Of a stretch of DNA of 64,000 bases, positions 26,706 through 63,932 are shown in pieces. The translations under genes were made by a program, and so were the position numbers. Every line of letters starts with the position of its first letter. Position 1 is the first letter of the stretch. The notes below the pieces were generated by a model that saw nothing but the letters and a program-made list of their open reading frames with translations, was not told where the DNA came from and made no database searches. The stretch comes from a virus, in the IMG/VR virus record IMGVR_UViG_3300045988_132920; one strand, written 5' to 3'.

Positions 26706-27047
26706 ATGGCACATTTTATTAACATAACAGCTGATAAATTAGATATAACTAATTCTGAAGGTAATAACGCAATAGTGTTTCATATCCCTGGTCACTGTGC
26801 TGGGTGTAAAAGAGCTTTAGAGCTCATAAATGAAATGGCTTTTGATGGTAAATTGGCTGATTGGAATTTTTATTTAATTGATGCTGAAAATGATACTAAT
26901 AAAGTACTTATTGATAAATATGAGGCTACTATAGCTCCAACAATTATTACTTTTAAGTCAGGTGTTAAAATGAATAGAACAAATGGTTTAAAAGAGTTTA
27001 TACAACAAAAGGACAAGTTATTTACAAATGAAACTAATGCAAATTGA
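26706..27047 (+). CDS. Thioredoxin/glutaredoxin-like CxxC protein, 113 aa.
   Basis: RBS (taggagacttaaATG). A CAGC motif follows a beta-strand-like VFHIPGH segment, consistent with a thioredoxin-fold active site. Confidence 0.45.
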   Translation: MAHFINITADKLDITNSEGNNAIVFHIPGHCAGCKRALELINEMAFDGKLADWNFYLIDAENDTNKVLIDKYEATIAPTIITFKSGVKMNRTNGLKEFIQQKDKLFTNETNAN

Positions 27048-28392
27048 ATTTGACAAACACATCCCTAATGATGTCATAACTAAAATTCAAACTCTTGTAG
27101 AGGTATTTACTGATGTATACCCTGATAAAGATATTCAATTAGGTATTGTTGGTGGTGCACTACGAGATATTGCATTGGGTATTAAGCCAAGTGATTGGGA
27201 CTTATTCATAGTCGGATTAACTTCAAATGAAGTCATCCAAGCTCTCACTGCTAATACAAAGTGGGAGGCATTTGAGTCAGGACTCAATTTTTCTATTGTA
27301 AGATGGAATCATTGTGAGATTACGGTTATTGAATCATATGATGACCTATGTGAGGATAGAGCAAGACGTGACCTCAGAATAAACTCCCTATACTTGTCTT
27401 ATGATGGTGGTAGTGGCTGGTATCTATCGACTACTACGGAAATTAATAGAGATTTTGAGCAAGGTATTTTAAGCTCAGACGGAGACGTTGATAAAAAGTT
27501 TGCTCAAGACCCTATAAAAATCCTAAGGGTTCTTAGATTCGCAGCCAAATATCACTTTCAAATTGACAGAGATTTGCACTTTGACATTCTAAGGCTAAGA
27601 CACTTAGTTAAAGATAAGGCTATACCTAAGGATAGAATTTTCCATGAGTTAAAGAAGGGATTTACTTGTGGTAATGCTTATGGGTTTGTTAGACTTCTTG
27701 ATGAGTTTGAGTTACTTGAGCATTTCTTCCCAGCAGTACATGCTTTAAAAGGTATAGACGGTGGTCATTATCACAATGAACAAGTGTTTACACATGTTAT
27801 GTTTGCATTAAAAGCACTTGACCCTATTGACCTACCATTTGAAGTAAAACTTGCTGCACTCTACCATGATACTGGTAAGTATCACTGGGAGATTGTTGAC
27901 GGTAAACGTAGATTTGTTGGTCACGATAGACTTGGTAAGTACGCAGCTAAGCAGGACCTTAATAGATTACGTTTTCCTGAGCACATTAAACGTACTGTAA
28001 AGGCTTTAGTTTGGTTTCATATGCACCAGGTAGATGGTAAAAAATCTACACGTAAGCTGGCTATAGGTCTTGGTAAGTTTAATGTACCATTAAAATATTT
28101 CTTTTGGGTAAGATATGCTGATAATATGGGAAGTGCTGTGTATAAAACAGATTTCATGTATTATTGGAAGCTCTATAGACAGGCTCTTAGGTACATTAAT
28201 CCGAAACACGTTCCGTCTGTAAAAGACCTTGTAATAAATGGTCACACAATTATGGAAAAGTTTGGAATTAAACAAGGACCTATTATTGGTAAGGCTTTAA
28301 AGATTCTGTTTAACAAAGTTGAAAATGAAGAACTTGAAAATGAAGAATCTGCTTTATTAGAAGAACTAAAACGACTTTTACCTACACTTTGA
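27028..28392 (+). CDS. cca: tRNA nucleotidyltransferase (CCA-adding enzyme) with an HD domain.
   Basis: Class II nucleotidyltransferase head motif GGALRD (GGxVRD consensus) near the N-terminus. HD-domain motifs H...LYHDTGK follow, as in bacterial CCA-adding enzymes. It sits next to the tRNA array. Confidence 0.85.
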   Translation: MKLMQIEFDKHIPNDVITKIQTLVEVFTDVYPDKDIQLGIVGGALRDIALGIKPSDWDLFIVGLTSNEVIQALTANTKWEAFESGLNFSIVRWNHCEITVIESYDDLCEDRARRDLRINSLYLSYDGGSGWYLSTTTEINRDFEQGILSSDGDVDKKFAQDPIKILRVLRFAAKYHFQIDRDLHFDILRLRHLVKDKAIPKDRIFHELKKGFTCGNAYGFVRLLDEFELLEHFFPAVHALKGIDGGHYHNEQVFTHVMFALKALDPIDLPFEVKLAALYHDTGKYHWEIVDGKRRFVGHDRLGKYAAKQDLNRLRFPEHIKRTVKALVWFHMHQVDGKKSTRKLAIGLGKFNVPLKYFFWVRYADNMGSAVYKTDFMYYWKLYRQALRYINPKHVPSVKDLVINGHTIMEKFGIKQGPIIGKALKILFNKVENEELENEESALLEELKRLLPTL

Positions 28393-28393
28393 G

Positions 28394-28630
28394 GTGATAA
28401 TGGTACTATATTGGTTTAGTTCACGTTATGACCCTGAGGTAGGGCACGCATATACTAATCTACATGACTTAAAGACATTTTGTGTAAATTGGTATAGTGC
28501 CTATGTGTCCCACAGGCTATCTGCATATTCATATCAAGCTGCTATAATGTCTTGTGTGATGCAAAATTATGACAGTATGAACGAATACAGGCTCTATGGT
28601 ATAATTAAGAGAAGTAAATGGTTTCTATAG
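28394..28630 (+). CDS. Hypothetical small protein, 78 aa.
   Basis: ORF coupled to the CCA gene stop, with RBS tgaggtgataATG. Confidence 0.4.
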   Translation: MIMVLYWFSSRYDPEVGHAYTNLHDLKTFCVNWYSAYVSHRLSAYSYQAAIMSCVMQNYDSMNEYRLYGIIKRSKWFL

Positions 28631-28632
28631 GG

Positions 28633-28661
28633 TTGACAATCGTGAAAACATGATGTATAAT
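28633..28661 (+). promoter_or_regulatory. Consensus promoter driving transcription into an ORF-free region of about 600 nt.
   Basis: gggttgaca, 17-nt spacer, tataat at 28656-28661. Confidence 0.6.
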
Positions 28662-29244
28662 AAATATGTACTTTGACAAGACCCATAATGTAAGTTCCGA
28701 TACTAACAGTTACGGATTATCGTATCCATCAGCTCGTTAGTTATGTGGAACCTGATGAAACAGTAAAATTTTCATCAGGGTATACCCAAATTAGCATATC
28801 CCTACGATTGAGTTATTCATAATGCAATAACAACAGGATAGTCTGGGAGGACGGAGTACCCCAGTAGGTCTTATTAAAGTCATATAATTGCACATTAAAA
28901 GTTTAATAGGTAACAACGAACGCATATCCAGTACGAAAGTAGCCCAGGGTTTTGGTACATTCCTCGTAAAGACCCCTGACCTCTATTTCAAGGATGGGCT
29001 TAATTACCCCAAAGGTGCTATAGGGATGGGACTCGTCAGGTTGTAGGACACAGACGACTGTTGTAATACAGTGGATATTACAGACATAGAGCTCAAAGTT
29101 TGTAATGTTTTATTTGGTATTGGTTCGGATTAATACAAAGGAGAAATACGTTTTTATCACCTCGCTGAGTATTAATATACCTATTTTAAATCTTCTACAA
29201 TAACAACCACTTTTACTGTCTGTTCCTTGACAGTATGTATCACA

Positions 29245-29275
29245 AAAAGAGACCCTTATTAGGGTCTCTTTTATG
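29245..29275. terminator. Bidirectional terminator ending the ORF-free transcript (plus) and the HNH gene (minus).
   Basis: Hairpin agagaccc-ttatta-gggtctct flanked by aaaa / tttt. Confidence 0.65.
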
Positions 29276-29693
29276 CGTTACAATTAAGACATCTTTTACC
29301 TTTCTTACGTCCAATTTCAATACCTAGTTCTTGTACAGTCTTTTTAATCATTTGGATATATTTATTACCATCAAATTTTCCAGGAATCTTTACATCTAAA
29401 AACTGGTCAAGATATGCTTTAATCATTGACCAGTCGAGTATTGTATTTAAAGGTTTTGTGCCACGGGCATTGTTCATTTCTTTAGAGGCAAGAGCATAGT
29501 TACTTAGAACAGACCTCCCTCCCTCACTTGCTGGCTTAAGATGTTCCAGCGATACATTGTTGACATTAATACCCTCTCCGTAGATTCCACGTTTGACAGT
29601 AGGTAACTTACCCTTCTTAAATAAAGTTTTTAATTCACTTTGGTATGAGCCAAAGCTCACTTGAGTTCCAGGTTGTACCTTGCTAACAGACAT
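29271..29693 (-). CDS. HNH-family endonuclease.
   Basis: Motifs SLEHLKPASEGG...NYALASKEMNNARG (His-Asn-His core with N spacing) and a C-terminal CLNC zinc-finger-like pair. It is a free-standing minus-strand gene between the CCA gene and the tRNA array. Confidence 0.7.
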   Translation of the reverse strand: MSVSKVQPGTQVSFGSYQSELKTLFKKGKLPTVKRGIYGEGINVNNVSLEHLKPASEGGRSVLSNYALASKEMNNARGTKPLNTILDWSMIKAYLDQFLDVKIPGKFDGNKYIQMIKKTVQELGIEIGRKKGKRCLNCNA

Positions 29694-29742
29694 TTATCAA
29701 CCTCATATTTTGTTATCATGTTACAATTTATTACAAGTGGGG

Positions 29743-29769
29743 TTGACATTAAAATTAATCTGTGATAAT
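29743..29769 (+). promoter_or_regulatory. Promoter at the head of the tRNA island.
   Basis: ggggttgacat...tgtgataat (extended -10). A second promoter lies at 30065-30093 (ttgaca-17-tatagt), just upstream of tRNA-Glu. Confidence 0.55.
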
Positions 29770-30064
29770 ATGAGATTATATTATAGGAAGCACACAACAA
29801 AGGATAAATTAAAAGTATGCAACTACTCAATACAGTGAAACAATTTAATAGCTGGAATATGGATTGCTCTCGTGATGAACATAGAGCATATTCACCTGCG
29901 GTTATTATATTAGGCACTGAGTTGCTGGGTGGTAGCAGATATATCCGAAGTTAAAGTTTGATTAACTTATAATAGATTTCAAAGATGCTACCTAGAGACC
30001 AAAAGAATCAAAGGTAGCATTTTTAGTTAGTACATTGACAATTTCATAGTAATACTCATAAGAA

Positions 30065-30093
30065 ACATATTGGGTTGACATATTCAACTTTTT
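30065..30093 (+). promoter_or_regulatory. Promoter immediately upstream of the first tRNA, tRNA-Glu.
   Basis: gggttgaca, 17-nt spacer tattcaactttttatga, tatagt. Confidence 0.55.
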
Positions 30094-30158
30094 ATGATAT
30101 AGTAGATAGTGTTGGAAGCAAGCCAATAAAAAACAGCACTTTGACACTATCTATATAT

Positions 30159-30234
30159 GCGGCTATCGTCTAATCGGTCAGGACGTCACCCTTTCAAGGT
30201 GGAAACGAGGGTTCAAACCCCTCTAGCCGTACCA
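30159..30234 (+). tRNA. tRNA-Glu (anticodon TTC).
   Basis: Cloverleaf read by eye: acceptor gcggcta/tagccgt, anticodon loop cTTTCaa, T-arm gaggg-ttcaaac-ccctc, CCA encoded. Confidence 0.8.
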
Positions 30235-30239
30235 TTTAT

Positions 30240-30314
30240 GGGGCATTAGTTCAGTTTGGTTAGAACATTGCACTGTCACTGCAAAGGTCAGGGATTCGAG
30301 CTCCCTATGCCCCG
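30240..30314 (+). tRNA. tRNA-Asp (anticodon GTC).
   Basis: Acceptor ggggcat/atgcccc, anticodon stem ttgca/tgcaa with loop ctGTCac, T-arm aggga-ttcgagc-tccct. Confidence 0.8.
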
Positions 30315-30550
30315 ATTTTAAAGTCTTATGACCTTGTTGTTATAGTCTGTGGATGGTTGCAAACTGAATCAGACCGAAATGGTACAAAGGACAGAAGTAG
30401 AGGTGCTCCTCTACCTGCATAGACCTACCCAGTTCTCAGTAATGGAATTGTATACTACGTTAACTTGTTGGCTGGTCACTAGGTGCAACTTTGACTAACA
30501 TATGCAGAGTTCAGTAGGTTCGACTCCTACCAAGGTTTTCAGTTTGTTAT

Positions 30551-30625
30551 GGGTCTGTAGCTCAATGGTGGAGCAGGGGACTCATAATCCCTTGGTTACA
30601 GGTTCGACTCCTGTCAGACCCACCA
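30551..30625 (+). tRNA. tRNA-Met (anticodon CAT).
   Basis: Acceptor gggtctg/cagaccc, anticodon loop ctCATaa, T-arm acagg-ttcgact-cctgt, CCA. Confidence 0.8.
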
Positions 30626-31075
30626 AGATTGAAAAGTTATTGTTCACTCGGTCTTTTCTTTGACTCCTTGTGGATTGTTAAAAGACCCACCTAGCTAGGG
30701 GATGGAATATACTAGGGTCCGTTAAGAGATTGTTGGACGTACGTGAAAACCGTATAAATACAAAAATCCATTACAGGTGAAAGTGCAACGGTGCACAGCT
30801 CTGGCTCATAACCAGGCACAGCCAAGCCCTTTTTTTGAAGGAACAACTTAGGTAGCCGTTCGACTCGGCAATATCCTGTATTGAATTCGGGTTGGTAACC
30901 TTTTCACTCATGATGTAGTGTTTGTGCTTGCAAGACGAACACTAAGTAGTGGACTCAGGGTGTGGTCTGAGGGGAAACAACACATAAACGGTACCGACTG
31001 AACTTAACGACTCCGAAGCAGTATAAACATTGGAGGGTCCGTTTGTGGGAGTTTTATAGTCAAACTTCCACACAT

Positions 31076-31151
31076 GCCGAAGTAGCTCAAATGGTAGAGC
31101 AGCTCACTTGTAATGAGACGGTTGTGGGTTCAAGTCCTGCCTTCGGCACCA
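31076..31151 (+). tRNA. tRNA-Thr (anticodon TGT).
   Basis: Acceptor gccgaag/cttcggc, loop ctTGTaa, T-arm ttcaagt, CCA. Confidence 0.75.
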
Positions 31152-31155
31152 ATAT

Positions 31156-31262
31156 TTGATGCTTTAGTTTAAGATTCCCTATCAGTATACTAGTTAGCAT
31201 AGGGAGAAGGCGAAAATACAGGTCCGCAAGCCTGAGATGTTAGTTCGACTCTAGCAAGTATC
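31156..31262 (+). ncRNA. Aberrant tRNA-like element of about 105 nt (7-bp acceptor-like pairing, T-arm gttag-ttcgact-ctagc, internal 7-bp hairpin, non-7-nt anticodon loop).
   Basis: gatgctt pairs with aagtatc and a canonical T-arm is present. The total length and an inserted tccctat...ataggga hairpin do not fit a standard cloverleaf. Possible insertion-containing or degenerate tRNA. Confidence 0.3.
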
Positions 31263-31275
31263 ATCAATTACTTAA

Positions 31276-31350
31276 TGGCAAGTAGCTCAATGGCAGAGCT
31301 CTCGGCTGTTAACCGAGCGGTTGGAGGTTCGAGTCCTCTCTTGCCAGCCA
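31276..31350 (+). tRNA. tRNA-Asn (anticodon GTT).
   Basis: Acceptor tggcaag/cttgcca, loop ctGTTaa, T-arm ggagg-ttcgagt-cctct, CCA. Confidence 0.8.
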
Positions 31351-31372
31351 ATTAACATAAAAGGAGATTAAT

Positions 31373-31630
31373 ATGTACCGATTAGTTAGAGCTTGGAAAG
31401 TCTGGAGAAATAAGAATAAATACAAGAATTCACCAGAATCAATTAAACAGGACATCTATGAGATAATAACGACTAAGTTATTTAAACAACCTCAAGAATG
31501 TCTAAGAGCTTTAGATGAATTTGAAGGTATAGTAAGTTATGACTATGATTCTAAGGGTAATTTTGAAGCAGTATTAGCTAGTGGTACAAAAATTAAGGTT
31601 TGTGTAACTTTAACAACTATTGAAATATAG
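31373..31630 (+). CDS. Hypothetical small basic protein, 85 aa.
   Basis: RBS (aaaggagattaatATG) directly after tRNA-Asn. Confidence 0.55.
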   Translation: MYRLVRAWKVWRNKNKYKNSPESIKQDIYEIITTKLFKQPQECLRALDEFEGIVSYDYDSKGNFEAVLASGTKIKVCVTLTTIEI

Positions 31631-31737
31631 GTGAGAGCCGAATATCAGTTGGTCGGACGTGTCTGTAAAACATGTGCCTAATAAGCCGTTGGGGGTGCAA
31701 CTCCCTTCTCACCTACCATATAATGAAAGGAACTCTT

Positions 31738-32046
31738 ATGAAGTTATTAATGTCTTTATTAGCATTAAGTTTGATGACATCTTCCGTATATGCTCAGAAT
31801 TACTTTCAAACACAAGGTCTTTCTAAGGAAGTTGTTAGTACAGATGACATTATAAATATGTGTAATTACTGTTCACATCATTATTTTATATACAACGTAA
31901 ATCATAAGTATAGATATAAAGTTATTTATGATAATGAGCTTAAATGTAATAATGACTATAATGCACTAGTGCTAAAAATGCAAAATGATGAATATAGTAA
32001 ATGTATAAAGCACGGTGGTGGTACTGCTTGTGCATTACGAAAATAG
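31738..32046 (+). CDS. Secreted small Cys-containing protein, about 102 aa with signal peptide. Paralogue of 34607..34885.
   Basis: Start reassigned to ATG 31738 (RBS gaaagga). Signal peptide MKLLMSLLALSLMTSSVYAQ. C-terminal motif SKCIKHGGGTACALRK. Confidence 0.6.
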   Translation: MKLLMSLLALSLMTSSVYAQNYFQTQGLSKEVVSTDDIINMCNYCSHHYFIYNVNHKYRYKVIYDNELKCNNDYNALVLKMQNDEYSKCIKHGGGTACALRK

Positions 32047-32203
32047 CTTAAGGGAACTGCGGTCCTGAAAACACTAAAAGGCATGCTCCATTACAGAAAA
32101 TCCTAGGTAAGAACCATATTTTAGTGTCAAACTGGCAGAGCTGTAAGTCTAGCTAACTTATAGGAAGTTTAGCAGGGTGGTGTCTGAAAACCCTGTAATC
32201 ATG

Positions 32204-32278
32204 GGGGCACATGTACCAAGGTGGCGAGATTCCCTTGCAAGGAAACTGTGGTGAGTTCGATTCTCATTGTCTCCACCA
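32204..32278 (+). tRNA. tRNA-Ala (anticodon TGC), weak D-arm.
   Basis: Acceptor gggggca/tgtctcc with G-U pairs, anticodon loop ctTGCaa, T-arm gtgag-ttcgatt-ctcat, CCA. D-stem pairing is poor. Confidence 0.5.
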
Positions 32279-32342
32279 ATTAAAACAAACTAATAGGAGA
32301 ATACAAATGAAACTTAAATCACGATGGTGTAATAAACAATAT

Positions 32343-32418
32343 GCGTGTATAGTTTAATGGTTTAGAATTCTGGTCTCCAAAACCAGAGATGTAGGTTCGA
32401 TTCCTGCTACACGTGCCA
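32343..32418 (+). tRNA. tRNA-Trp (anticodon CCA).
   Basis: Acceptor gcgtgta/tacacgt, anticodon stem ctggt/accag with loop ctCCAaa, T-arm ttcgatt, CCA. Confidence 0.8.
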
Positions 32419-32422
32419 ATAC

Positions 32423-32495
32423 GGGTGTGGAGCTCGGTTGGTTGAGCAGCTGGCTTTTAACCAGTTGGTTGCAGGTTCGATTCCTGTCGCACCCA
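32423..32495 (+). tRNA. tRNA-Lys (anticodon TTT).
   Basis: Acceptor gggtgtg/cgcaccc, loop ctTTTaa, T-arm gcagg-ttcgatt-cctgt. No encoded CCA. Confidence 0.75.
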
Positions 32496-32522
32496 ATTTT
32501 TACATAAAAAGGAGAATAAATT

Positions 32523-32756
32523 ATGGCAGTTTTTGCAGTAGCATTAAACAATGAAGGCTATGGATGTGGGTTTTACATCTGGCAAGCCGAAGACGAAGAA
32601 GCTCTTATAGCAGACCTTAAAAAAGAGTGGAATCGAGACCCAGACAATGATGTAGTACAAGCCTGGATAGATGAAGAATGGTTATTCTTCTCAAAAATTG
32701 ATGAAGAAGCATTTAAAGGTGAAAACTATTTTGAGGTATATAATAACTTCTCTTAA
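32523..32756 (+). CDS. Hypothetical small acidic protein, 77 aa.
   Basis: RBS (aaaggagaataaattATG). Its end abuts tRNA-Val. Confidence 0.55.
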   Translation: MAVFAVALNNEGYGCGFYIWQAEDEEALIADLKKEWNRDPDNDVVQAWIDEEWLFFSKIDEEAFKGENYFEVYNNFS

Positions 32757-32832
32757 GCTCGCTTAACTCAATCGGTAGAGTGTCTCCCTTACAAGGAGGA
32801 AGTTGTAGGTTCGAGTCCTACAGCGAGCACCA
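32757..32832 (+). tRNA. tRNA-Val (anticodon TAC).
   Basis: Acceptor gctcgct/agcgagc, loop ctTACaa, T-arm gtagg-ttcgagt-cctac, CCA. Confidence 0.8.
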
Positions 32833-32877
32833 TATTTGTTAAATTTTAATAGGTATAACAAGTATGGAGACAATATA

Positions 32878-33210
32878 ATGGCAGAATTATTTACAGCAGT
32901 TGAAGCTAAAGAAATCACAGATGCAGCATGTGATAAATATGCTGAAATCGTAAGAATAATCAAAGATAAAGCTGCAAACAAACAGTACGAAGTATTATTC
33001 ACAAACGAAGAAGTGTCTGATGAAATCTTTACTAAACTAAGAGAAGGCGGTTTCTACATCAATAGAGCAGCTCGTGGAGTTGTTATTGCGTGGGATACTG
33101 CTGTTAATGCAGACGACAAAAAAGAAGAAGTTACTACACCAGACCCTGGTAAAGAAGAAGATGGTAGTCAAGGCGGTAATGAGCAAGGTGAAGACCAAGT
33201 TACTGAATAG
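32878..33210 (+). CDS. Hypothetical protein with an acidic C-terminus, about 110 aa.
   Basis: Start reassigned to ATG 32878 (RBS ggagacaatataATG). A terminator hairpin at 33231-33262 follows. Confidence 0.55.
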   Translation: MAELFTAVEAKEITDAACDKYAEIVRIIKDKAANKQYEVLFTNEEVSDEIFTKLREGGFYINRAARGVVIAWDTAVNADDKKEEVTTPDPGKEEDGSQGGNEQGEDQVTE

Positions 33211-33265
33211 TCTGCAACTCAAAATCAAATAGGTTTGGAAGGAGCCTAATAGGCTCCTTCCTTAT

Positions 33266-33341
33266 GCCGAGGTAGCTCAGTTGGTAGAGCACCTGTCTGA
33301 AGAACAGGGTGTCACTGGTTCAATTCCAGTCCTCGGCACCA
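33266..33341 (+). tRNA. tRNA-Phe (anticodon GAA).
   Basis: Acceptor gccgagg/cctcggc, D-arm gctcagttggtagagc, loop ctGAAga, T-arm actgg-ttcaatt-ccagt, CCA. Confidence 0.85.
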
Positions 33342-33442
33342 TTTAAAAGTTTGGGTGGTCGTCTAAGTAAAGGACACGAAAATCGAAAATGATGGGGATT
33401 TATTAAGTGACGTCACATATTCAACCTATCCCACCCACCCAT

Positions 33443-33519
33443 ATCCTCGTAGCTCAATAGGACAGAGCATGGAGCTTCTACCTCCAGTGTTGGGGGTTCG
33501 ATTCCCTCCGAGGATGCCA
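33443..33519 (+). tRNA. tRNA-Arg (anticodon TCT).
   Basis: Acceptor atcctcg/cgaggat, loop ctTCTac, T-arm ggggg-ttcgatt-ccctc, CCA. Confidence 0.75.
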
Positions 33520-33606
33520 CTAAGAATCACATGCTAAATGAAGGCTACTCACGGACCAATAAGTAGGTCAGATGAGTTCTGGAGGTCCCACGTGGACTTC
33601 CATTAT

Positions 33607-33680
33607 GCGGATATAGTTTAAAGGTAAAATTCCTCCTTGCCATGGAGATGTTGCGAGTTCGATTCTCGCTATCCGCTCCA
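33607..33680 (+). tRNA. tRNA-Gly (anticodon GCC).
   Basis: Acceptor gcggata/tatccgc, loop ttGCCat, T-arm gcgag-ttcgatt-ctcgc, CCA. Confidence 0.8.
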
Positions 33681-33707
33681 ATAAATAAAAACGAAAGGAA
33701 CACAATT

Positions 33708-33992
33708 ATGATTGATGCAAACTTAGCCGTGCTTGATAAATTAGAAGACCTTATTAAATGTGATGGTAGGTTAACAATTACTTTAAACAAAACGGATTTA
33801 ATGGTTCTCCATAGTGCAATCCATAGTGAAAAGGTTTATATAGATAAACTTTTTAAAGGTTTTGCAGAAGGTGATAATGATGGAGCTGATTTAGATAGCT
33901 TTTGTCAATTACTCGGAGAAATTAGAGCTGACTCTGTTTCAGATATGGAGACAATTATACAAACTATAGTTAATAGAATTTTAGAAACTTAA
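33708..33992 (+). CDS. Hypothetical small protein, about 94 aa.
   Basis: Start reassigned to ATG 33708 (RBS aaacgaaaggaac). The track's 33642 start would overlap tRNA-Gly. Confidence 0.55.
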   Translation: MIDANLAVLDKLEDLIKCDGRLTITLNKTDLMVLHSAIHSEKVYIDKLFKGFAEGDNDGADLDSFCQLLGEIRADSVSDMETIIQTIVNRILET

Positions 33993-34001
33993 CTATATTA
34001 T

Positions 34002-34076
34002 TGCGAATATGGTCTAAAGGCTATGATTTCTGGCTTCCAACCAGACGGTCAGGGTTCGATTCCCTGTATTCGCTCC
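34002..34076 (+). tRNA. tRNA-Gly (anticodon TCC).
   Basis: Acceptor gcgaata/tattcgc, anticodon stem tctgg/ccaga with loop ctTCCaa, T-arm caggg-ttcgatt-ccctg, CCA. Confidence 0.8.
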
Positions 34077-34254
34077 ATTCCAGGTTGCTTAGTTAGCATA
34101 GGTCATACCAAGTGCACAGTATGGCTATGGGTAGGAATAACTCCCTACCCTAACTGGAAGCAACCTATGTCGTAGGACCACGTACAGTGGAGTGCTTGTA
34201 TGAAGAAGCTGCGTGGATAGTATAACAGACATTAAACTCCTTTGGTAGATATGA

Positions 34255-34331
34255 GTCTGGGTAGTCAAATTGGTAGAGACAGGGGACTTAAAATCCTCGT
34301 TTTGTGGGTTCGACTCCCACCCTAGACACCA
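34255..34331 (+). tRNA. tRNA with anticodon TAA (Leu, UUA) but a short class-I variable loop.
   Basis: Acceptor gtctggg/cctagac, anticodon stem gggga/tcctc with loop ctTAAaa, 5-nt variable loop, T-arm gtggg-ttcgact-cccac, A73, CCA. Confidence 0.65.
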
Positions 34332-34335
34332 ATAA

Positions 34336-34412
34336 GCCCCTGTAGTCAAATAGGTAAAGACGGCTGCCTTAGAAGCAGTGTTCTGCGAGTTCGACTCTCG
34401 CTGGGGGCACCA
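34336..34412 (+). tRNA. tRNA with anticodon TAG (Leu, CUA) and a short variable loop.
   Basis: Acceptor gcccctg/tgggggc, loop ctTAGaa, T-arm gcgag-ttcgact-ctcgc, A73, CCA. Confidence 0.65.
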
Positions 34413-34417
34413 ATTAT

Positions 34418-34492
34418 ACCCTTGTAGGCTAACGGAGAAACCGCAACACTACGAATGTTGAGTTCTAGGTTCGATTCCTAGTGGGGGTACCA
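34418..34492 (+). tRNA. tRNA-Arg (anticodon ACG).
   Basis: Anticodon stem caaca/tgttg with loop ctACGaa, T-arm ctagg-ttcgatt-cctag, acceptor with G-U pairs, CCA. Confidence 0.65.
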
Positions 34493-34493
34493 T

Positions 34494-34566
34494 GCCAGTA
34501 TGATGGAATGGTATACATACCAAGCTCAAACCTTGGGTTCTGCAAGTTCGACTCTTGCTACTGGCA
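34494..34566 (+). tRNA. tRNA with anticodon CAA (Leu, UUG) and a short variable loop.
   Basis: Acceptor gccagta/tactggc, anticodon stem ccaag/cttgg with loop ctCAAac, T-arm gcaag-ttcgact-cttgc, A73. No encoded CCA. Confidence 0.65.
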
Positions 34567-34606
34567 TTAGGTTGACAATGTTAAGTTAATATGATATATT
34601 TCTTGT

Positions 34607-34885
34607 ATGAAAAAGACTATTTTACTTACAATGATTTTATTAATGGGGACTGTTACATTAGCAGACGATTGGTATACAAACCCATCAAGTCCTACAAATG
34701 TAATGATGAATCCAATGAATGCTTGGCATCCAGCTAATATTTATCACAACACTGTACTTAACCCTTATAAATACTATGAGGAAGAAGACAGTTATGACAG
34801 AGCTACTAGAATTAAGACTAAGAAGTACAACTCTTGCGTGAAGTATGGTGGTGGAGATGCGTGCAGAAGTATATTAAATAACTAG
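34607..34885 (+). CDS. Secreted small Cys-containing protein, 92 aa with signal peptide. Paralogue of 31738..32046. Probably expressed from a leaderless mRNA.
   Basis: Signal peptide MKKTILLTMILLMGTVTLA. C-terminal NSCVKYGGGDACRSILNN. Promoter ttgaca 34572-34577, tatatt 34595-34600, which places the transcription start at about the ATG. Confidence 0.6.
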   Translation: MKKTILLTMILLMGTVTLADDWYTNPSSPTNVMMNPMNAWHPANIYHNTVLNPYKYYEEEDSYDRATRIKTKKYNSCVKYGGGDACRSILNN

Positions 34886-34958
34886 GTGTAGTGCAGTTTG
34901 GTAGCATGCCTGTTTTGGGAACAGGCGGTCGGGGGTTCAAATCCCTCCACCTAGACCA
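34882..34958 (+). tRNA. tRNA-Pro (anticodon TGG).
   Basis: Acceptor ctaggtg/cacctag, anticodon stem cctgt/acagg with loop ttTGGga, T-arm ggggg-ttcaaat-ccctc, CCA. Confidence 0.75.
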
Positions 34959-34963
34959 ATTAA

Positions 34964-35035
34964 TCCCCGATAGTTTAATCGGCAGAACATCTGATTTTGG
35001 TTCAGAAGGTCGAGGTTCGAGTCCTTGTTGGGGAA
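34964..35035 (+). tRNA. tRNA-Gln (anticodon TTG).
   Basis: Acceptor tccccga/ttgggga, anticodon stem tctga/tcaga with loop ttTTGgt, T-arm cgagg-ttcgagt-ccttg. Confidence 0.65.
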
Positions 35036-35108
35036 TTTTAACTTGGGTTGACAGATATTCAATTTAATGATATAATAACGAAGTAAACATACGAAAAAGG
35101 AAATACAT

Positions 35109-36140
35109 ATGACAACAGAACTTGTAACAAATGAGGATTTGTTCTACTCTTATCCGTCTATTGAAAATTCTTATAGGGAAGAATTCATCAATAAGATTTA
35201 TGCTCACGGATACGGAGATGAACGTTACTACGTAACTGAAAAAATCCATGGCTCAAACACGCAGCTCTCTTATGATGGTAATGAATTCAAGTATGGCACA
35301 CGTAGCCATTATCTTATTGAGAATGAGAAATGCTATAACGTACAGCCCTTACTTGACAAAGTTAAACCTGTATTAGAAGCTGAATACAAAAGATTGAAAG
35401 AAGACGTACCAACCTTAAGAAATGTTATTATCTATGGTGAGGTGTATGGTGGATGCTATCCACACCCTGATGTAAAGGTAAATAATCATGCTTCTAAAGT
35501 ACAAAAAGGTGTTTACTACTCACCTAATAATGAATGGTCAGCATTTGATTTTTGCTATGTAGATGATAATGGTAAGCACTTTTATACAGGTTCACAATTC
35601 ATTAAACTGTGTCAAGTAAATAACATTAGCACTACACCTGTATTAGCTATTGTTAATACACTAAAAGAAGCACTTGAGTTTAATAACGCAGGTGAGTCTA
35701 CCATAGGTCCACTTCTAGGGTACCCTGAGCTTGAAAATAACACTATGGAAGGGGTTGTAATTAAACCCCTTGATAAAGACCTCTGGATGGGTCAAACTCG
35801 TGTAGTAATCAAGAACAAAAATGATAAGTTCAAAGAAAAATCACACGAAAAGAAAGTAAACATCCAAATTGAACTACCAGAGTGTGTTACAAAGGCTTTG
35901 GAGGCTTCTGTACCCTATATAAATGAGAATCGTGTAAATAACGTTATTTCTCATTTAGGTGAAGTGACCTATAAGGACACAGGACGAATCATTGGTGAGA
36001 CTAACAAAGATGTTCTTGCAGTGATTCAAGATGAAGTACCTGAGTATAATCTTATGGAAAAGCAAGAACGTAAGCAATTTACAAAGTTGCTAAATAACGA
36101 AGTTGCTAAAGTTGTACGTAAGGTGATGCAGGTACGTTAA
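35109..36140 (+). CDS. RNA ligase of the T4 Rnl2 family.
   Basis: N-terminal YPSIENSYREEFINKIYAHG and the nucleotidyltransferase motif I TEKIHGSN (T4 Rnl2: EKIHGTN). Later motifs RVVIKNKNDKFKEK and YINENRVNNVISHLGEV closely parallel T4 Rnl2. Promoter ttgaca 35048-35053, tataat 35071-35076. Confidence 0.85.
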   Translation: MTTELVTNEDLFYSYPSIENSYREEFINKIYAHGYGDERYYVTEKIHGSNTQLSYDGNEFKYGTRSHYLIENEKCYNVQPLLDKVKPVLEAEYKRLKEDVPTLRNVIIYGEVYGGCYPHPDVKVNNHASKVQKGVYYSPNNEWSAFDFCYVDDNGKHFYTGSQFIKLCQVNNISTTPVLAIVNTLKEALEFNNAGESTIGPLLGYPELENNTMEGVVIKPLDKDLWMGQTRVVIKNKNDKFKEKSHEKKVNIQIELPECVTKALEASVPYINENRVNNVISHLGEVTYKDTGRIIGETNKDVLAVIQDEVPEYNLMEKQERKQFTKLLNNEVAKVVRKVMQVR

Positions 36141-36173
36141 TCAGGGTAAATTACCCTGATTATGCACCCTTAG

Positions 36174-36248
36174 CCAAGTGGTCAAGGCGGAGGTCTGCAA
36201 AACCTCTATCGTTGGTTCAAATCCAACAGGGTGCTCCATTTGGAGAGT
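36174..36248 (+). tRNA. tRNA-Cys (anticodon GCA).
   Basis: Acceptor gcaccct/agggtgc, anticodon stem gaggt/acctc with loop ctGCAaa, T-arm gttgg-ttcaaat-ccaac, CCA. Confidence 0.8.
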
Positions 36249-36351
36249 AAACTTCAGGGGTCTGAAGGCTGGTTTGCTAAACCAAGTGTTCACGTAAGTG
36301 GATGAGTTTCAAGTACTCTGCTCTCCTCCATTTATAACAAAGGAATAAGTT

Positions 36352-36732
36352 ATGATATATACAGGTTATTTTGCTAAAACAAAAGAATATGAGGCAGCAG
36401 GACTATTCCCTATAGGTGTTGCTGGTAAAACTCCAGATTTCTTTAAGAATATGGTTTGGAGAGATGTAGCACCAAGATGGGACCACTTTAAACGGTGGAA
36501 ATCTGGTGAGATAGATAACTTTCAATATTCTGAACTTTATACAACTATGCTCAACAAGCTAGATAAAGAAGATACAAGGAAGTTTATCCAAGAGCTTCTT
36601 CAGATTAATGAGAATATCATATTCTTATGTTATGAAAAACCAGGTACTTTCTGTCATAGACACATACTAGCAGATTGGCTAGAATCTGAGATAGGAGTGG
36701 GACCTGTTGATGAATATAAATTGGAGGTGTAA
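36352..36732 (+). CDS. DUF488 (YeaO-like) family protein.
   Basis: The C-terminal FCHRHILADWLES matches the DUF488 signature (CHR...LADWL). The N-terminus MIYTGYFAK fits the family. Confidence 0.45.
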   Translation: MIYTGYFAKTKEYEAAGLFPIGVAGKTPDFFKNMVWRDVAPRWDHFKRWKSGEIDNFQYSELYTTMLNKLDKEDTRKFIQELLQINENIIFLCYEKPGTFCHRHILADWLESEIGVGPVDEYKLEV

Positions 36733-36815
36733 CCCTAATTGGTAAGGGGGTAGTCTTGAAAACTACTAGTAGTCGGGAAACTGACGTGCTGGTTCGAGTC
36801 CAGTCACCTCCTCCA
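36724..36815 (+). tRNA. tRNA-Ser (anticodon TGA), class II with a long variable arm.
   Basis: Acceptor ggaggtg/cacctcc, anticodon stem gtagt/actac with loop ctTGAaa, long variable arm agtcgggaaactgac, T-arm ttcgagt, CCA. It overlaps the stop of 36352..36732. Confidence 0.8.
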
Positions 36816-36832
36816 GTATAGAAAGGACAAAT

Positions 36833-37192
36833 ATGTCACTTCAAGAAAACCTAGCATACTTAATGGAGTTCAACTACAAAAAGCTATTTAAAGGTGTTCC
36901 TAAAAATTACTATTTGTCTAAGGAGGACAGGCAAGAGCTATTAGATGCTATTGAATGTGCTCAAGAGACTTTTGGTAGGCAACATGGTGACTTTATCTTG
37001 GCAGATGGTAAGTTTACTCCCCACAAAGCACTTGAGTTTTGTAATGTTCGCTGCACAGATACTGTTGAAGAAGCAATTTGTAATTACGTACTTGCTGCAT
37101 TGAATCCAAAATATTCAGAGTACGAACAATTTGTTCAGTATACAGTAGATGAACTAAAAAAGTATGAGAATGGGTACAGAAATAAGAAATAA
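36833..37192 (+). CDS. Hypothetical protein, 119 aa.
   Basis: RBS (agaaaggacaaatATG). Confidence 0.55.
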   Translation: MSLQENLAYLMEFNYKKLFKGVPKNYYLSKEDRQELLDAIECAQETFGRQHGDFILADGKFTPHKALEFCNVRCTDTVEEAICNYVLAALNPKYSEYEQFVQYTVDELKKYENGYRNKK

Positions 37193-37265
37193 TGCTGGGT
37201 GTCCGAGTGGTTTAGGAGCTGCACTCATACCGCAGTTTACGTGGGTTCAAATCCCACCTCAGCAA
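37193..37265 (+). tRNA. tRNA with a CAT anticodon (Met/fMet or lysidine-Ile type), second copy.
   Basis: Acceptor tgctggg/ctcagca, anticodon loop ctCATac, T-arm gtggg-ttcaaat-cccac. The last anticodon-stem pair is mismatched. Confidence 0.55.
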
Positions 37266-37286
37266 TTATTTATGAATGGGGTCGTG

Positions 37287-37363
37287 GCAATGTAATGTGT
37301 CGTTAGCTCAGTTTGGTTAGAGCCCTGGATTGTGGTTCCAGTTGCATGGGTTCAAATCCCATA
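37287..37363 (+). tRNA. tRNA-His (anticodon GTG).
   Basis: Acceptor gtgtcgt/acgacac, anticodon stem ctgga/tccag with loop ttGTGgt, T-arm atggg-ttcaaat-cccat, CCA. Confidence 0.8.
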
Positions 37364-37478
37364 CGACACCCCATTTATAGAGTTTAGGTAAGGTCTACAT
37401 CACCTTCGGTAGCGAGTCGACACTACTGAAAATGGCAGTCGGGAGTGAGGCAACGACTAAAATATTTCTCACGAACAT

Positions 37479-37553
37479 GGTCTTGTAGCTCAGCGGTAGA
37501 GCACTCGGCTGATAACCGAGAGGTCGAAGGGTCAGCACCTTCCAAGACCACCA
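37479..37553 (+). tRNA. tRNA-Ile (anticodon GAT).
   Basis: Acceptor ggtcttg/caagacc, D-arm gctcagcggtagagc, anticodon stem ctcgg/ccgag with loop ctGATaa, CCA. Non-canonical T-loop gtcagca. Confidence 0.75.
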
Positions 37554-37596
37554 TTATTACTATGAAATTGTATATTCTAACTCATGGAGGGACAAA

Positions 37597-38250
37597 ATGA
37601 CACTTGACCATACTGTGAGACTTTTTAATACTACAATCAATGAGGCTTTTGCTGAGCTTAAAGAGCATCATGTACAGCCCGATTGTATTATTACCCATAT
37701 AAACAACAACTGCTTTGGTGGTGAAATTACCATTGAAAAAATGAGAGACCTTGGCGAAAGATTCAAAGATGTTCTTATTGGTCAAGGTCATATTTATTTG
37801 TATATTGATGATATTCAAGACTTAGGTATAGTCATGGTAGGCATGCAAGAAGCTGGGTTAACGTTTAAGAATATCCTAACAATACCTTACACAGATAAGA
37901 TAGTACAAGCTGGATGTAACACACGTAAATACTTTGATGGTGCTGTAAAACGAGTGTTATACTTTACTAAGTATGAAGGACATTTCTTAAACCATACAAA
38001 ACTATTTATTAAAATAAAGGCTACTAGTATGCACCCTGCTGTGTGGAATTGGTTTAAGGGTACAATCTCAGACTCTTACAAAAATATCATGCAAATATCT
38101 ACTCAGCACGCAGATACAATACTTGACCCATTTATGTTAACTGATGCCATTGGTAAAGCAACTGTTGAGGCAGACAGACACTACATCGGAATCAACCCTG
38201 GAAAAAATTTTAACGATATAAAGCATAGCTTAGAAATGTTACAAGTTTAA
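37597..38250 (+). CDS. Hypothetical protein, 217 aa.
   Basis: RBS (ggagggacaaaATG) after tRNA-Ile. Confidence 0.6.
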   Translation: MTLDHTVRLFNTTINEAFAELKEHHVQPDCIITHINNNCFGGEITIEKMRDLGERFKDVLIGQGHIYLYIDDIQDLGIVMVGMQEAGLTFKNILTIPYTDKIVQAGCNTRKYFDGAVKRVLYFTKYEGHFLNHTKLFIKIKATSMHPAVWNWFKGTISDSYKNIMQISTQHADTILDPFMLTDAIGKATVEADRHYIGINPGKNFNDIKHSLEMLQV

Positions 38251-38548
38251 GGGGTTGACAAATAAATTATCTTATGTTATTATATTTATATAAGGCAAAC
38301 GTCAGGCTAAGTAATCTACAGAACGGTCTGGTGGCAGATATAATTGCCAAGAGCCTCACTATACCGTTGCCGAGCGGTTCTTACATATGGTGAGACAACT
38401 CAGGAGATTGAGACCTCGTGTAAGAAGGTAGCTATTATAGCAAAAAAAAACATCAACTCCACGTTGTAGATAACCTCGCATAAGGGAACGAAAGACCTTG
38501 TTCAACATGCAGCTGACCAGTGAACAGCTTACCAAACACTGGACGTAG

Positions 38549-38622
38549 CGGAGTGGAGCAGTAGTAGCTCGCCAGTCTCATAAGCTGGAGGTCGTGGGTG
38601 CAACTCCCACCTCTCGCAACCA
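38549..38622 (+). ncRNA. tRNA-like element with a CAT anticodon loop but imperfect acceptor stem (possible third CAT tRNA or pseudo-tRNA).
   Basis: Anticodon stem ccagt/gctgg with loop ctCATaa, T-arm gtggg-tgcaact-cccac. Acceptor pairing is poor and the 3' end reads ...aacca. A roughly 250-nt ORF-free leader and a promoter lie upstream; a terminator follows. Confidence 0.4.
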
Positions 38623-63536: not shown

Positions 63537-63932
63537 ATGATACTAATTAAAAGACTTGAATTTACACAAGACAATCAAGGAAGACCTGTAACAGTTGAAA
63601 CTACTGTGTTTCACCTTAGTGTACTTGTAAATGATACAGATAACATGCACACTCATCTAATTGAGGAAAATGTGTTTGAAAACAATGTGTTTAGAGAGCT
63701 TGTGCAAGAGTATATGGAAAACGAAACAGATGAAGTACTATTCTGTACTAGCACTGATGAGGGTGCAGAATTTGAAGTAACAGGAGAAGTATGTCTTGAA
63801 TTCCTTAATAGAATGAAAGCTAAAGGCTACAACCTAGACAATTTGTGGAAAGAGGACGGAGTAACATTTTTGAATAACAAGTTCTTTAATGTTAGCACTC
63901 AACATTATGCCGTTGAAGTTGTTGATTACTAA
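63537..63932 (+). CDS. Early-region hypothetical acidic protein, 131 aa.
   Basis: RBS gaaagggtaaacttATG. Another cassette promoter begins at 63949. Confidence 0.55.
   Translation: MILIKRLEFTQDNQGRPVTVETTVFHLSVLVNDTDNMHTHLIEENVFENNVFRELVQEYMENETDEVLFCTSTDEGAEFEVTGEVCLEFLNRMKAKGYNLDNLWKEDGVTFLNNKFFNVSTQHYAVEVVDY

Follow-up and report, generated by a model that had tools for sequence, protein, structure and literature searches.

A probable two-module structured RNA gene in the tRNA island of an uncultured gut phage

ROOL and GOLLD rank among the largest and most puzzling RNAs of bacteria and phages, since both are encoded by phages or prophages as neighbours of tRNA islands and both form RNA-only assemblies, or cages, with a function still to be found (PMC5737381; PMC12286853). 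Intermolecular self-assembly has been shown for the ROOL, GOLLD and OLE RNAs (PMC12286853). The locus described here is the interval at positions 28633-29275 of a 64,000-nucleotide (nt) stretch of viral DNA (IMG/VR record IMGVR_UViG_3300045988_132920), the whole of which is called the window in what follows. Its source is an uncultured gut-metagenome phage fragment, and the region is also found, as identical copies, on ENA gut-metagenome contigs; searches of the GenBank phage collection with blastn and megablast returned no DNA relatives of the window. The original prediction for this interval had left three options, namely a structured non-coding RNA, a cluster of very small open reading frames (micro-ORFs), or the remnant of an intron-like element linked to a neighbouring HNH gene. 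The first of these is now strongly supported by covarying helices in two plus-strand modules, termed A and B. As judged from promoter and terminator signals, conservation, helices and strand, all of which are observed in the sequences, the interval is very probably a real structured RNA gene on the plus strand, and probably a two-module one that falls outside every catalogued family.

Relatives of the interval were gathered by using the protein of the upstream CCA-adding enzyme gene as an anchor, which provided contigs with homologues at 38-98% identity (designated by L numbers below). Much more distant relatives likewise have no ORFs in the stretch that follows the CCA gene, and this stretch has short motifs in common with the window. 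Pairwise nhmmer homology links these sequences in a chain, with E-values from 5e-8 for the closest pair to 1e-3 for the weakest link, and profile E-values go down to 1e-36. Profile searches found module A in 11 sequences from 9 lineages and module B in 9 sequences from 7 lineages (E 1e-23 to 1e-34 by profile nhmmer for the latter). It is because the modules and near-consensus promoters recur in ~10 related phage lineages, and not because of an ORF scan, that the interval stands out beyond chance. In addition, each module occurs alone in some related phages (Table 1), so the two are best viewed as separable functional units.

Module A is predicted to fold as a four-helix junction (P1, P2, P3/P4 and P5) with its own ends paired, single-stranded segments that are invariant, and a signature loop of 12 nt, and the window copy at 28668-28881 shows all features of the family (P1, the joiner, GAAKNAGCAY, P3 and P5). 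When P1, P3 and P5 were counted together on a plain MAFFT alignment of 11 sequences, with 500 shuffles and a slid 3' partner as controls, 93.1% of the cells were paired, as against 64.1% in shuffled alignments (none of the 500 shuffles reached the observed value) and 33-45% with the slid partner. Double changes were seen in 15 of 16 pairs of this module, compared with a shuffled mean of 11.0 (4 of 500 shuffles reached 15), and its covariation score was 0.947 versus 0.333 for the control. The P5 hairpin has a 5-bp (base pair) stem and a loop of exactly 12 nt in 10 of 10 sequences, its stem is 100% paired with double changes in all five pairs, and its loop follows the consensus N-G-R-N-N-R-G-R-K-U-A-M. 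The short Px pairing covaries as well, its pair being A:U in seven cases and G:C in four and switching in step, and the base helix of P2 is complementary in all ten sequences checked, which represent at least six different sequences. Relative L003 is 96% identical, and its RNA region departs from that of the window by ~20 substitutions and two small indels; within module A, the differences between the two fall at unpaired positions only.

A covariance model built from the module-A MAFFT alignment (R1) and searched over 188 kb scored the 11 module-A copies at 89-136 bits (135.8 for the window) and everything else at 16 bits or less; the alignment fitted to R1 is 95.1% paired, a figure that leans toward the model. 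No second copy of module A or B was found in the window by profile or by R1. The internal hairpin cctgatgaaa...tttcatcagg that the original prediction had placed at 28756-28783 does exist, at the corrected position given in Table 1, where it forms part of a lineage-specific insert between P2 and GAAKNAGCAY; this insert is absent in L008 and L010, and other lineages have different hairpins at the same place. Some further readings of module A were dropped, including a pseudoknot of the P5 loop with the joiner or the 5' end, which a by-eye check found to be inconsistent across lineages, and a sarcin-ricin reading of the P5 loop, which fails for half of the sequences. A P5 lookalike resembling AGGACGGAGUAA at 63847-63870 on the plus strand (GGAAAG-AGGACGGAGTAA-CATTTT) was also rejected, as it is located within an ORF, shows none of the other features of the family and receives no model score. 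In L008 (2352-2376) the P2 loop carries the palindrome GCAUGC, and no palindrome is present there in other lineages.

In module B, a long segmented hairpin would precede a pair of small ones, and one of these would be capped by a palindromic 12-nt loop. Its common architecture was obtained from single-sequence folds and explicit checks in each lineage, with counts made on a MAFFT alignment: 86.0% of the core cells were paired, versus 66.4% in shuffled alignments (0 of 500 reached the observed value) and 35-51% with a slid partner, and 13 of 16 core pairs showed double changes. For individual helices, Ba was 96% paired, Bc 100% and Bb 66%, the last with two sequences out of register in the alignment, and the stems of Bd, Be and the palindromic hairpin all covary. 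The Bc loop reads NUAAUUAN or UAGCUAA across lineages. Downstream of the central hairpin there is a conserved CAWGCG, then Be, then the hairpin with the 12-nt loop; the Be stems vary among lineages yet stay paired (seven lineage strings were verified, and the L100 string was not located). For a pairing between the two ends of module B, the conserved part is only a 3-bp UAC/GUA match. The linker between the two modules is conserved as AUUGUAMNUU-GAAAAUUAAAUAGGUAAAA (window 28882-28913; L004:5668-5720; L090:5108-5150; L100:3884-3925), and that of L090 contains a TTGACA hexamer; the linker could be a structural element of the RNA, a site of processing or the vestige of an internal promoter.

The signals that delimit the RNA also recur. 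The promoter proposed in the original prediction was confirmed by a consensus score of 12/12, and it is the sole perfect match to TTGACA-17-TATAAT within 27000-31000. Promoters scoring 10-12/12 lie on the plus strand immediately upstream of the first RNA helix in 9 of 13 loci (the window and eight others), with the end of the -10 hexamer 1-18 nt before the RNA start, or, in L012, 3 nt inside the assigned start. L005 has one promoter common to module A and a tRNA, and L091 has no promoter of its own. At the other end, the strong bidirectional terminator that had been proposed is present, with its coordinates revised from 29245-29275 to those in Table 1, and it forms a 12-bp terminal hairpin in the minimum free energy (MFE) fold. 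A consensus terminator scan did not list this hairpin, which we attribute to its bidirectional type, in which the A-run pairs with the T-run and leaves no free T tail. A hairpin followed by a T-run is found 3' of the RNA in L008, L011 and L095, and a hairpin is found 3' of it in L010. The promoter and terminator enclose ~600 nt, for an RNA length of ~530-600 nt; host RNA polymerase would start at ~28668 and stop at ~29272, which would give a primary transcript of ~600 nt.

The claim that the interval has no ORF of 60 or more codons on either strand is upheld, the longest being 52 amino acids (aa; plus strand, TTG start) and 44 aa (minus strand). Shuffled sequence gives a longest ORF of 44.7 +/- 15, so the lack of long ORFs is unremarkable by itself. 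As for the proposal that the interval encodes one or several small proteins, plus-strand ORFs of 24-52 codons are indeed present and an AAGGAG occurs at 29138-29143, but no start codon follows this motif and no ORF of the interval has a Shine-Dalgarno sequence at proper spacing, which was the scoring suggested for such micro-ORFs. Moreover, a 1-nt insertion in L003 disrupts the frame of the 52-codon ORF, ORF positions vary among the homologues, several units have no plus-strand ORF of 25 codons or more, and the substitutions between lineages keep base pairs rather than codons. In contrast, the 78-aa ORF just upstream of the promoter (28394-28630) is probably a real gene, with 9 of its 13 differences from L003 at third codon positions. 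A micro-ORF cluster was therefore not borne out, and we consider it extremely unlikely.

The palindromic loop of module B bears on how the RNA might behave. Homologous hairpins in L011/L095, L004, L090 and L091 each have a central 6-nt palindrome and covarying stems. A composition-preserving shuffle of the loop gives a palindrome with a probability of 0.07-0.16, and the three independent types together have a probability of ~2e-3. A 6-nt palindrome cannot pair inside its own loop, and a loop palindrome that changes sequence yet stays a palindrome suggests self-pairing between RNA molecules. Such switching of palindromes is the evidence used for intermolecular kissing in OLE and GOLLD (PMC12286853). 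Self-association of the RNA through the module B loop may occur, and it is put forward tentatively.

The kinds of base pairs found bear on the choice of strand. The supported helices contain ~18 G.U cells, each of which becomes a C.A mismatch if read on the minus strand, and the A-to-G changes of L003 in Be (29066, 29077 and 29080) all give G.U on the plus strand and C.A on the minus strand. The alternative is a functional transcript on the minus strand, either an antisense RNA or a long 3' untranslated region of the convergent HNH-like gene, which reads toward the interval and has the terminator in common with it. The single-sequence MFE z-score, a measure of thermodynamics alone, also favours that strand (-5.76 versus -2.33 for the plus strand, 20 shuffles each). 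Nevertheless, the terminator separates the HNH-like gene from the interval, consensus promoters are on the plus strand in 9 loci, some loci have the RNA but not the HNH-like gene, and the covarying helices would lose their G.U pairs, so that a minus-strand transcript has very little probability.

Like this z-score, several other observations weigh against our reading of the interval as a plus-strand, two-module RNA gene of a new family. All homologues came through synteny with the CCA gene, which partly builds in their association with it, and the sample is small, its 9 lineages of module A and 7 of module B being phylogenetically related. An exact 20-mer, a 16-mer and three gapped patterns were each scanned against IMG/VR; matches were either zero or at chance level, and after evaluation by nhmmer and the covariance model none proved to be a copy. 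A module-A pattern had 34 matches in GTDB representative genomes, which is chance level (best model score 21.9 bits), and a scan of GTDB genomes with the CCA-enzyme alignment found no relatives; because neither collection yielded a copy, all those known are in metagenome assemblies. The last ~100 nt of the unit are poorly conserved, and in module B no pairing is assigned to the 5' 70 nt or beyond 29103, where sequence motifs are nonetheless conserved. L100 and L012 lack the palindromic hairpin, which is therefore an accessory feature and leaves the case for a kissing loop a moderate one, and GAGCUC has an alternative reading as a site in the DNA. Finally, the motif may be present, unnamed, in large candidate lists outside Rfam (PMC8040213, PMC10690425).

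Table 1. Coordinates of the RNA modules, their signals, neighbouring genes and counterparts in related loci (positions are those of the window unless a locus is named).
Feature	Position or loci	Strand	Remarks
Sigma-70 promoter TTGACA-17-TATAAT	28633-28661	+	12/12 match; inferred transcription start ~28668
Module A	28668-28881	+	Multi-helix junction closed by its own 5' and 3' ends
P1 terminal helix	28670-28684 with 28866-28880	+	
Conserved joiner AUAAUGUAAGUUCC	28685-28698	+	Consensus AURRUG-n-UAAGUYC
Px, 3 bp	28688-28690 with 28795-28797	+	RUG pairs with CAY of GAAKNAGCAY
P2 variable arm, base helix	28702-28707 with 28736-28741	+	
Lineage-specific insert	28751-28787	+	Hairpin 28751-28779 and small hairpin GGGUAUACCC 28778-28787
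Conserved AAAUUAGCAU	28788-28797	+	Consensus GAAKNAGCAY
P3, 4 bp	28798-28801 with 28836-28839	+	Encloses hairpin P4 at 28812-28831
P5 hairpin	28843-28864	+	5-bp stem CUGGG/CCCAG, 12-nt loop AGGACGGAGUAC; family signature
Module B	~28886-29190	+	3' boundary approximate
Conserved 5' motif of B, AAAGUUUAAUAGGUAA	28898-28913	+	
Conserved 5' motif of B, UACGAAA	28932-28938	+	
Central segmented hairpin of B	28961-29048	+	
Bd	28961-28964 with 29045-29048	+	
Internal loop GUAAAG	28966-28971	+	Conserved 5' side, YGUAAAR...
Ba (CCUGAC/GUCAGG)	28975-28980 with 29035-29040	+	Found by RNAalifold
Bb	28981-28986 with 29020-29025	+	
Bc	28995-28998 with 29008-29011	+	9-nt loop CUUAAUUAC
3' bulge of B	29026-29034	+	9 nt in the window, 9-12 nt across lineages
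Be hairpin GUAAUA-CAGUGGA-UAUUAC	29063-29081	+	
Hairpin with 12-nt loop AUA-GAGCUC-AAA	29081-29102	+	Palindrome 29089-29094; candidate kissing loop
3' tail	29191-29243	+	Small hairpin 29215-29234; poorly conserved, not alignable to distant homologues
Intrinsic bidirectional terminator AAAAAGAGACCC-TTATTA-GGGTCTCTTTT	29244-29272	both	Common to the RNA gene and the convergent HNH-like gene
BspA-type leucine-rich-repeat protein gene, 486 aa	24969-26429	+	Pfam LRR_5 1.5e-7; PDB TpLRR 8e-10
CCA-adding enzyme gene	27028-28392	+	Pfam PolyA_pol, PolyA_pol_RNAbd, HD, tRNA_NucTran2_2; syntenic anchor of the RNA family
78-aa ORF	28394-28630	+	Between CCA gene and RNA promoter; no family match; not called by gene caller in L003
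HNH-like gene, 140 aa	29271-29693	-	Convergent; neighbour, not part of the RNA
25 tRNA genes	30159-38618		Array starts 900 nt downstream, beyond the HNH-like gene
Rnl2-type RNA ligase gene	35109-36140		Inside the tRNA array
DUF488 protein gene	36352-36732		Inside the tRNA array
N6/N4 DNA methyltransferase gene	37597-38250		Inside the tRNA array
Equivalent promoter	L003, L004, L090, L100, L012, L008, L099, L010	+	10-12/12
A and B in tandem	window, L003, L004, L011, L095, L090, L100		
A alone, then terminator	L008, L010		
A after a tRNA	L005		
A before tmRNA-like sequence	L099		By eye only
B alone	L091, L012		L091: directly after CCA stop, before tmRNA; L012: right after promoter
Loop homologous to 29081-29102	L011, L095		AAU-GAGCUC-AAC
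Loop homologous to 29081-29102	L004		Contains GAGCUC; loop 16 nt
Loop homologous to 29081-29102	L090		ACAG-UGUACA-UA
Loop homologous to 29081-29102	L091		GUA-GUGCAC-UAA
tmRNA gene adjoining the modules	L004:6879-7272		Rfam 115 bits
tmRNA gene adjoining the module	L091:5417-5804		Rfam 119 bits
tmRNA-like sequence after module A	L099 ~3815-3960		Recognised by eye only

The gene that converges on the RNA was called an HNH endonuclease in the original prediction, and the 140-aa ORF is indeed there, although its HNH identity is weak. It resembles PHROG HNH families at E 5e-4 to 4e-3 and has no Pfam match, some of its orthologues match Pfam HNH at 8e-5 and HNH_5 at 4e-4, and a profile of the protein family matches the HNH protein 4h9d in PDB weakly (E 0.021). 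The same profile matches ribosomal protein bL25, a 5S rRNA binder, equally weakly (E 0.021), which is probably noise. The motif SLEHL.P.S.GG..N.ALA.K..N..R (EH...N...N) is invariant in six orthologues. Just upstream of where this gene starts, the opposite (plus) strand has a promoter-like site at 29743-29771 that scores 10/12, includes an extended -10 TG and is directed toward the tRNA array.

Since phage tRNA regions often carry homing endonucleases, the adjacency of this ORF and the presence of an orthologue alongside the RNA in 6 of 13 loci could be taken to mean that the interval is a group I or group II intron, or the remnant of a homing element, that formerly belonged to the HNH gene. 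However, no group I or group II intron covariance model matches the interval at E<=10, and a consensus promoter and a terminator delimit the RNA as a unit of its own, on the other strand from the HNH gene. The RNA also occurs in L004, L090, L100, L099 and L005, where that gene is missing, and structural selection acts on both modules. The intron-like origin was thus not sustained and has, in our estimate, hardly any likelihood compared with an independent RNA gene.

The wider neighbourhood of this RNA gene is one of tRNA biology. Upstream of the interval are a thioredoxin-like gene, the CCA-adding enzyme gene and the 78-aa ORF, and the gene for the 486-aa leucine-rich-repeat protein is kept upstream of the CCA gene in several relatives. 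Homologues of the CCA-adding enzyme are present in all RNA-bearing loci, and modules A and B are always near this gene and tRNA or tmRNA genes. ARAGORN and Rfam found no tmRNA in the window; in relatives, a canonical tmRNA is present next to the modules as a gene of its own. The tRNA array has promoters of its own at 30075 and 30141. The interval looks like the head of an island for tRNA supply and repair that includes the CCA-adding enzyme, the tRNAs and the Rnl2 ligase.

The neighbourhood, which is the sole basis for assigning a role, suggests one in tRNA or translation biology. The transcript would fold into two autonomous domains, A and B, which, given that each also exists alone, might be cut apart after transcription, and the folded, abundant RNA would act in trans as a member of the phage tRNA/CCA-adding/RNA-ligase island. 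Module B would pair with a second copy through its palindromic loop to give a dimer or a higher assembly. Possible roles include sequestering or protection of tRNAs, a decoy against tRNA-targeting defences such as anticodon nucleases, or a scaffold for repair enzymes; any specific cellular role of this kind is improbable when taken singly. The broadest proposal is that this is a third class of large phage tRNA-island RNA beside ROOL and GOLLD, that module B self-associates by a kissing loop like that of the dimerization initiation site (DIS) of HIV-1, and that the resulting RNA-only dimers or assemblies act on the tRNA and translation machinery during infection; as a whole it is speculative, and we regard it as rather doubtful.

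Comparison with catalogued RNAs supports the novelty of the family. The Rfam/Infernal scan that had been suggested as a check was negative, a result that speaks for an uncatalogued RNA and not for the absence of one. Rfam 15, searched with both gathering thresholds and permissive E-values over the window and 12 related loci, detected tRNA and tmRNA only, and there was no match on the interval (28380-29320) at E<=10. No copy matched the Rfam families ROOL, GOLLD, OLE, raiA, 6S, RNase P, SRP, HEARO, Y RNA or tmRNA. For HEARO, the omega RNA of IscB, it can be added that the neighbouring protein here has 140 aa and an HNH-like motif only, versus ~400-500 aa with RuvC-HNH in IscB. A literature search for the conserved sequence strings returned nothing relevant. 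It is fairly likely that the RNA family has not been catalogued previously.

Two families deserve closer consideration, the first being ROOL or GOLLD, of which the RNA might be a divergent member missed by the Rfam models. Its size of ~530-600 nt is near the ROOL average of 581 nt, its source is a gut or rumen phage, and it adjoins a tRNA island, as described for both families. Yet the ROOL model gave no match at gathering threshold, none at E<=10 with permissive filters on 28380-29320, and none at E<=5 or E<=1 on L004, L008, L010, L011, L012, L007, L090, L091 and L092, so that neither the window copy nor the diverse copies of some ten other loci were recognised; the GOLLD model, which covers a universally conserved 3' region, likewise matched neither the window nor the related loci. 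In addition, a split into modules that occur alone has not been reported for ROOL, and GOLLD is usually >800 nt. Membership in either family is quite unlikely, and because the RNA is closest to them in behaviour and setting without matching either, we file it as a new family of the ROOL/GOLLD kind.

The second possibility is a Y-RNA-like partner of a Ro60/Rsr protein in RNA quality control. In distant relatives L092-L094 a TROVE/Ro60-vWA protein (Pfam 5e-16) and RtcB flank the CCA gene, an unassigned RNA with a T-loop lies downstream, and a long terminal stem closes module A as it does Y RNAs. However, tblastn with the L092 protein found no TROVE gene in the window, the positional equivalent there is the 486-aa BspA-type leucine-rich-repeat protein (which rules it out as a Ro60 candidate), no Y RNA-type family of Rfam matches, and L092 itself is without modules A and B. 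A Y RNA is accordingly given a very low probability relative to a separate family. The L092-L094 region has an organisation of its own: the TROVE/Ro60-vWA gene (L092:1623-3098) is just upstream of the CCA gene, an intein-containing RtcB gene (L092:5190-5660) is downstream, both are also present in L093 and L094, and the stretch of L092 between Ro60 and RtcB holds a tRNA, a truncated tmRNA-like element and an unassigned RNA that has the GUUCGAAUC T-loop. This region may be a phage Ro60/Y-RNA/RtcB module.

Set beside bacterial Y RNAs such as YrlA, which also have a terminal stem closing a structured domain and are encoded near RtcB and sometimes in phages, the RNA described here differs in that the window has no Ro60 gene and no tRNA-like T-arm is recognised in module A. 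The small stable RNAs of the T4 tRNA cluster are phage-encoded RNAs with no known function that lie within or beside the tRNA genes and are co-expressed with tRNAs, and in this they would resemble the present RNA; they are much shorter than either module and are not known to be related to it in sequence. In the HIV-1 DIS, RNA-RNA kissing occurs through a hairpin loop that has a 6-nt palindrome (GCGCGC or GUGCAC) at its centre. The candidate kissing loop of module B shares this central palindrome in a hairpin loop, and L091 has the identical GUGCAC; the DIS loop has 9 nt versus 12 nt here, and the systems are unrelated, so the analogy is one of mechanism only. The covarying palindromic loop is a direct and cheap handle on self-assembly.

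GOLLD shares with this RNA a phage or prophage origin, a position near tRNA arrays, a modular plan (in GOLLD a conserved 3' and a variable 5' region) and the switching of loop palindromes (PMC12286853), but it is often >800 nt, its sequences and helices differ, and its Rfam model has no match here. ROOL, first seen in rumen metagenomes, is a highly structured RNA of ~580 nt with no known protein partner (PMC5737381; PMC12286853), and both its size and its phage tRNA-island setting are found again at this locus, where the unit is ~600 nt. ROOL self-assembles through loop-loop contacts (PMC12286853), for which the counterpart here would be the candidate symmetric kissing loop; it differs from the present RNA, whose two modules also exist separately, with no Rfam match to any of 11 copies. 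In the present RNA, module A was resolved as a single multistem junction and module B as successive hairpins only, and no pseudoknot was identified. The modules are small (~160-210 nt for A and ~250-300 nt for B) and separate in nature, so they offer a simpler system for probing such RNAs, and their clear neighbourhood (CCA-adding enzyme, Rnl2-type ligase, tmRNA and tRNA array) aids in asking what RNAs of this type do. If the proposal holds, a third family, unrelated to ROOL and GOLLD, would occupy the tRNA-island niche, which would mean that this niche repeatedly recruits big structured RNAs.

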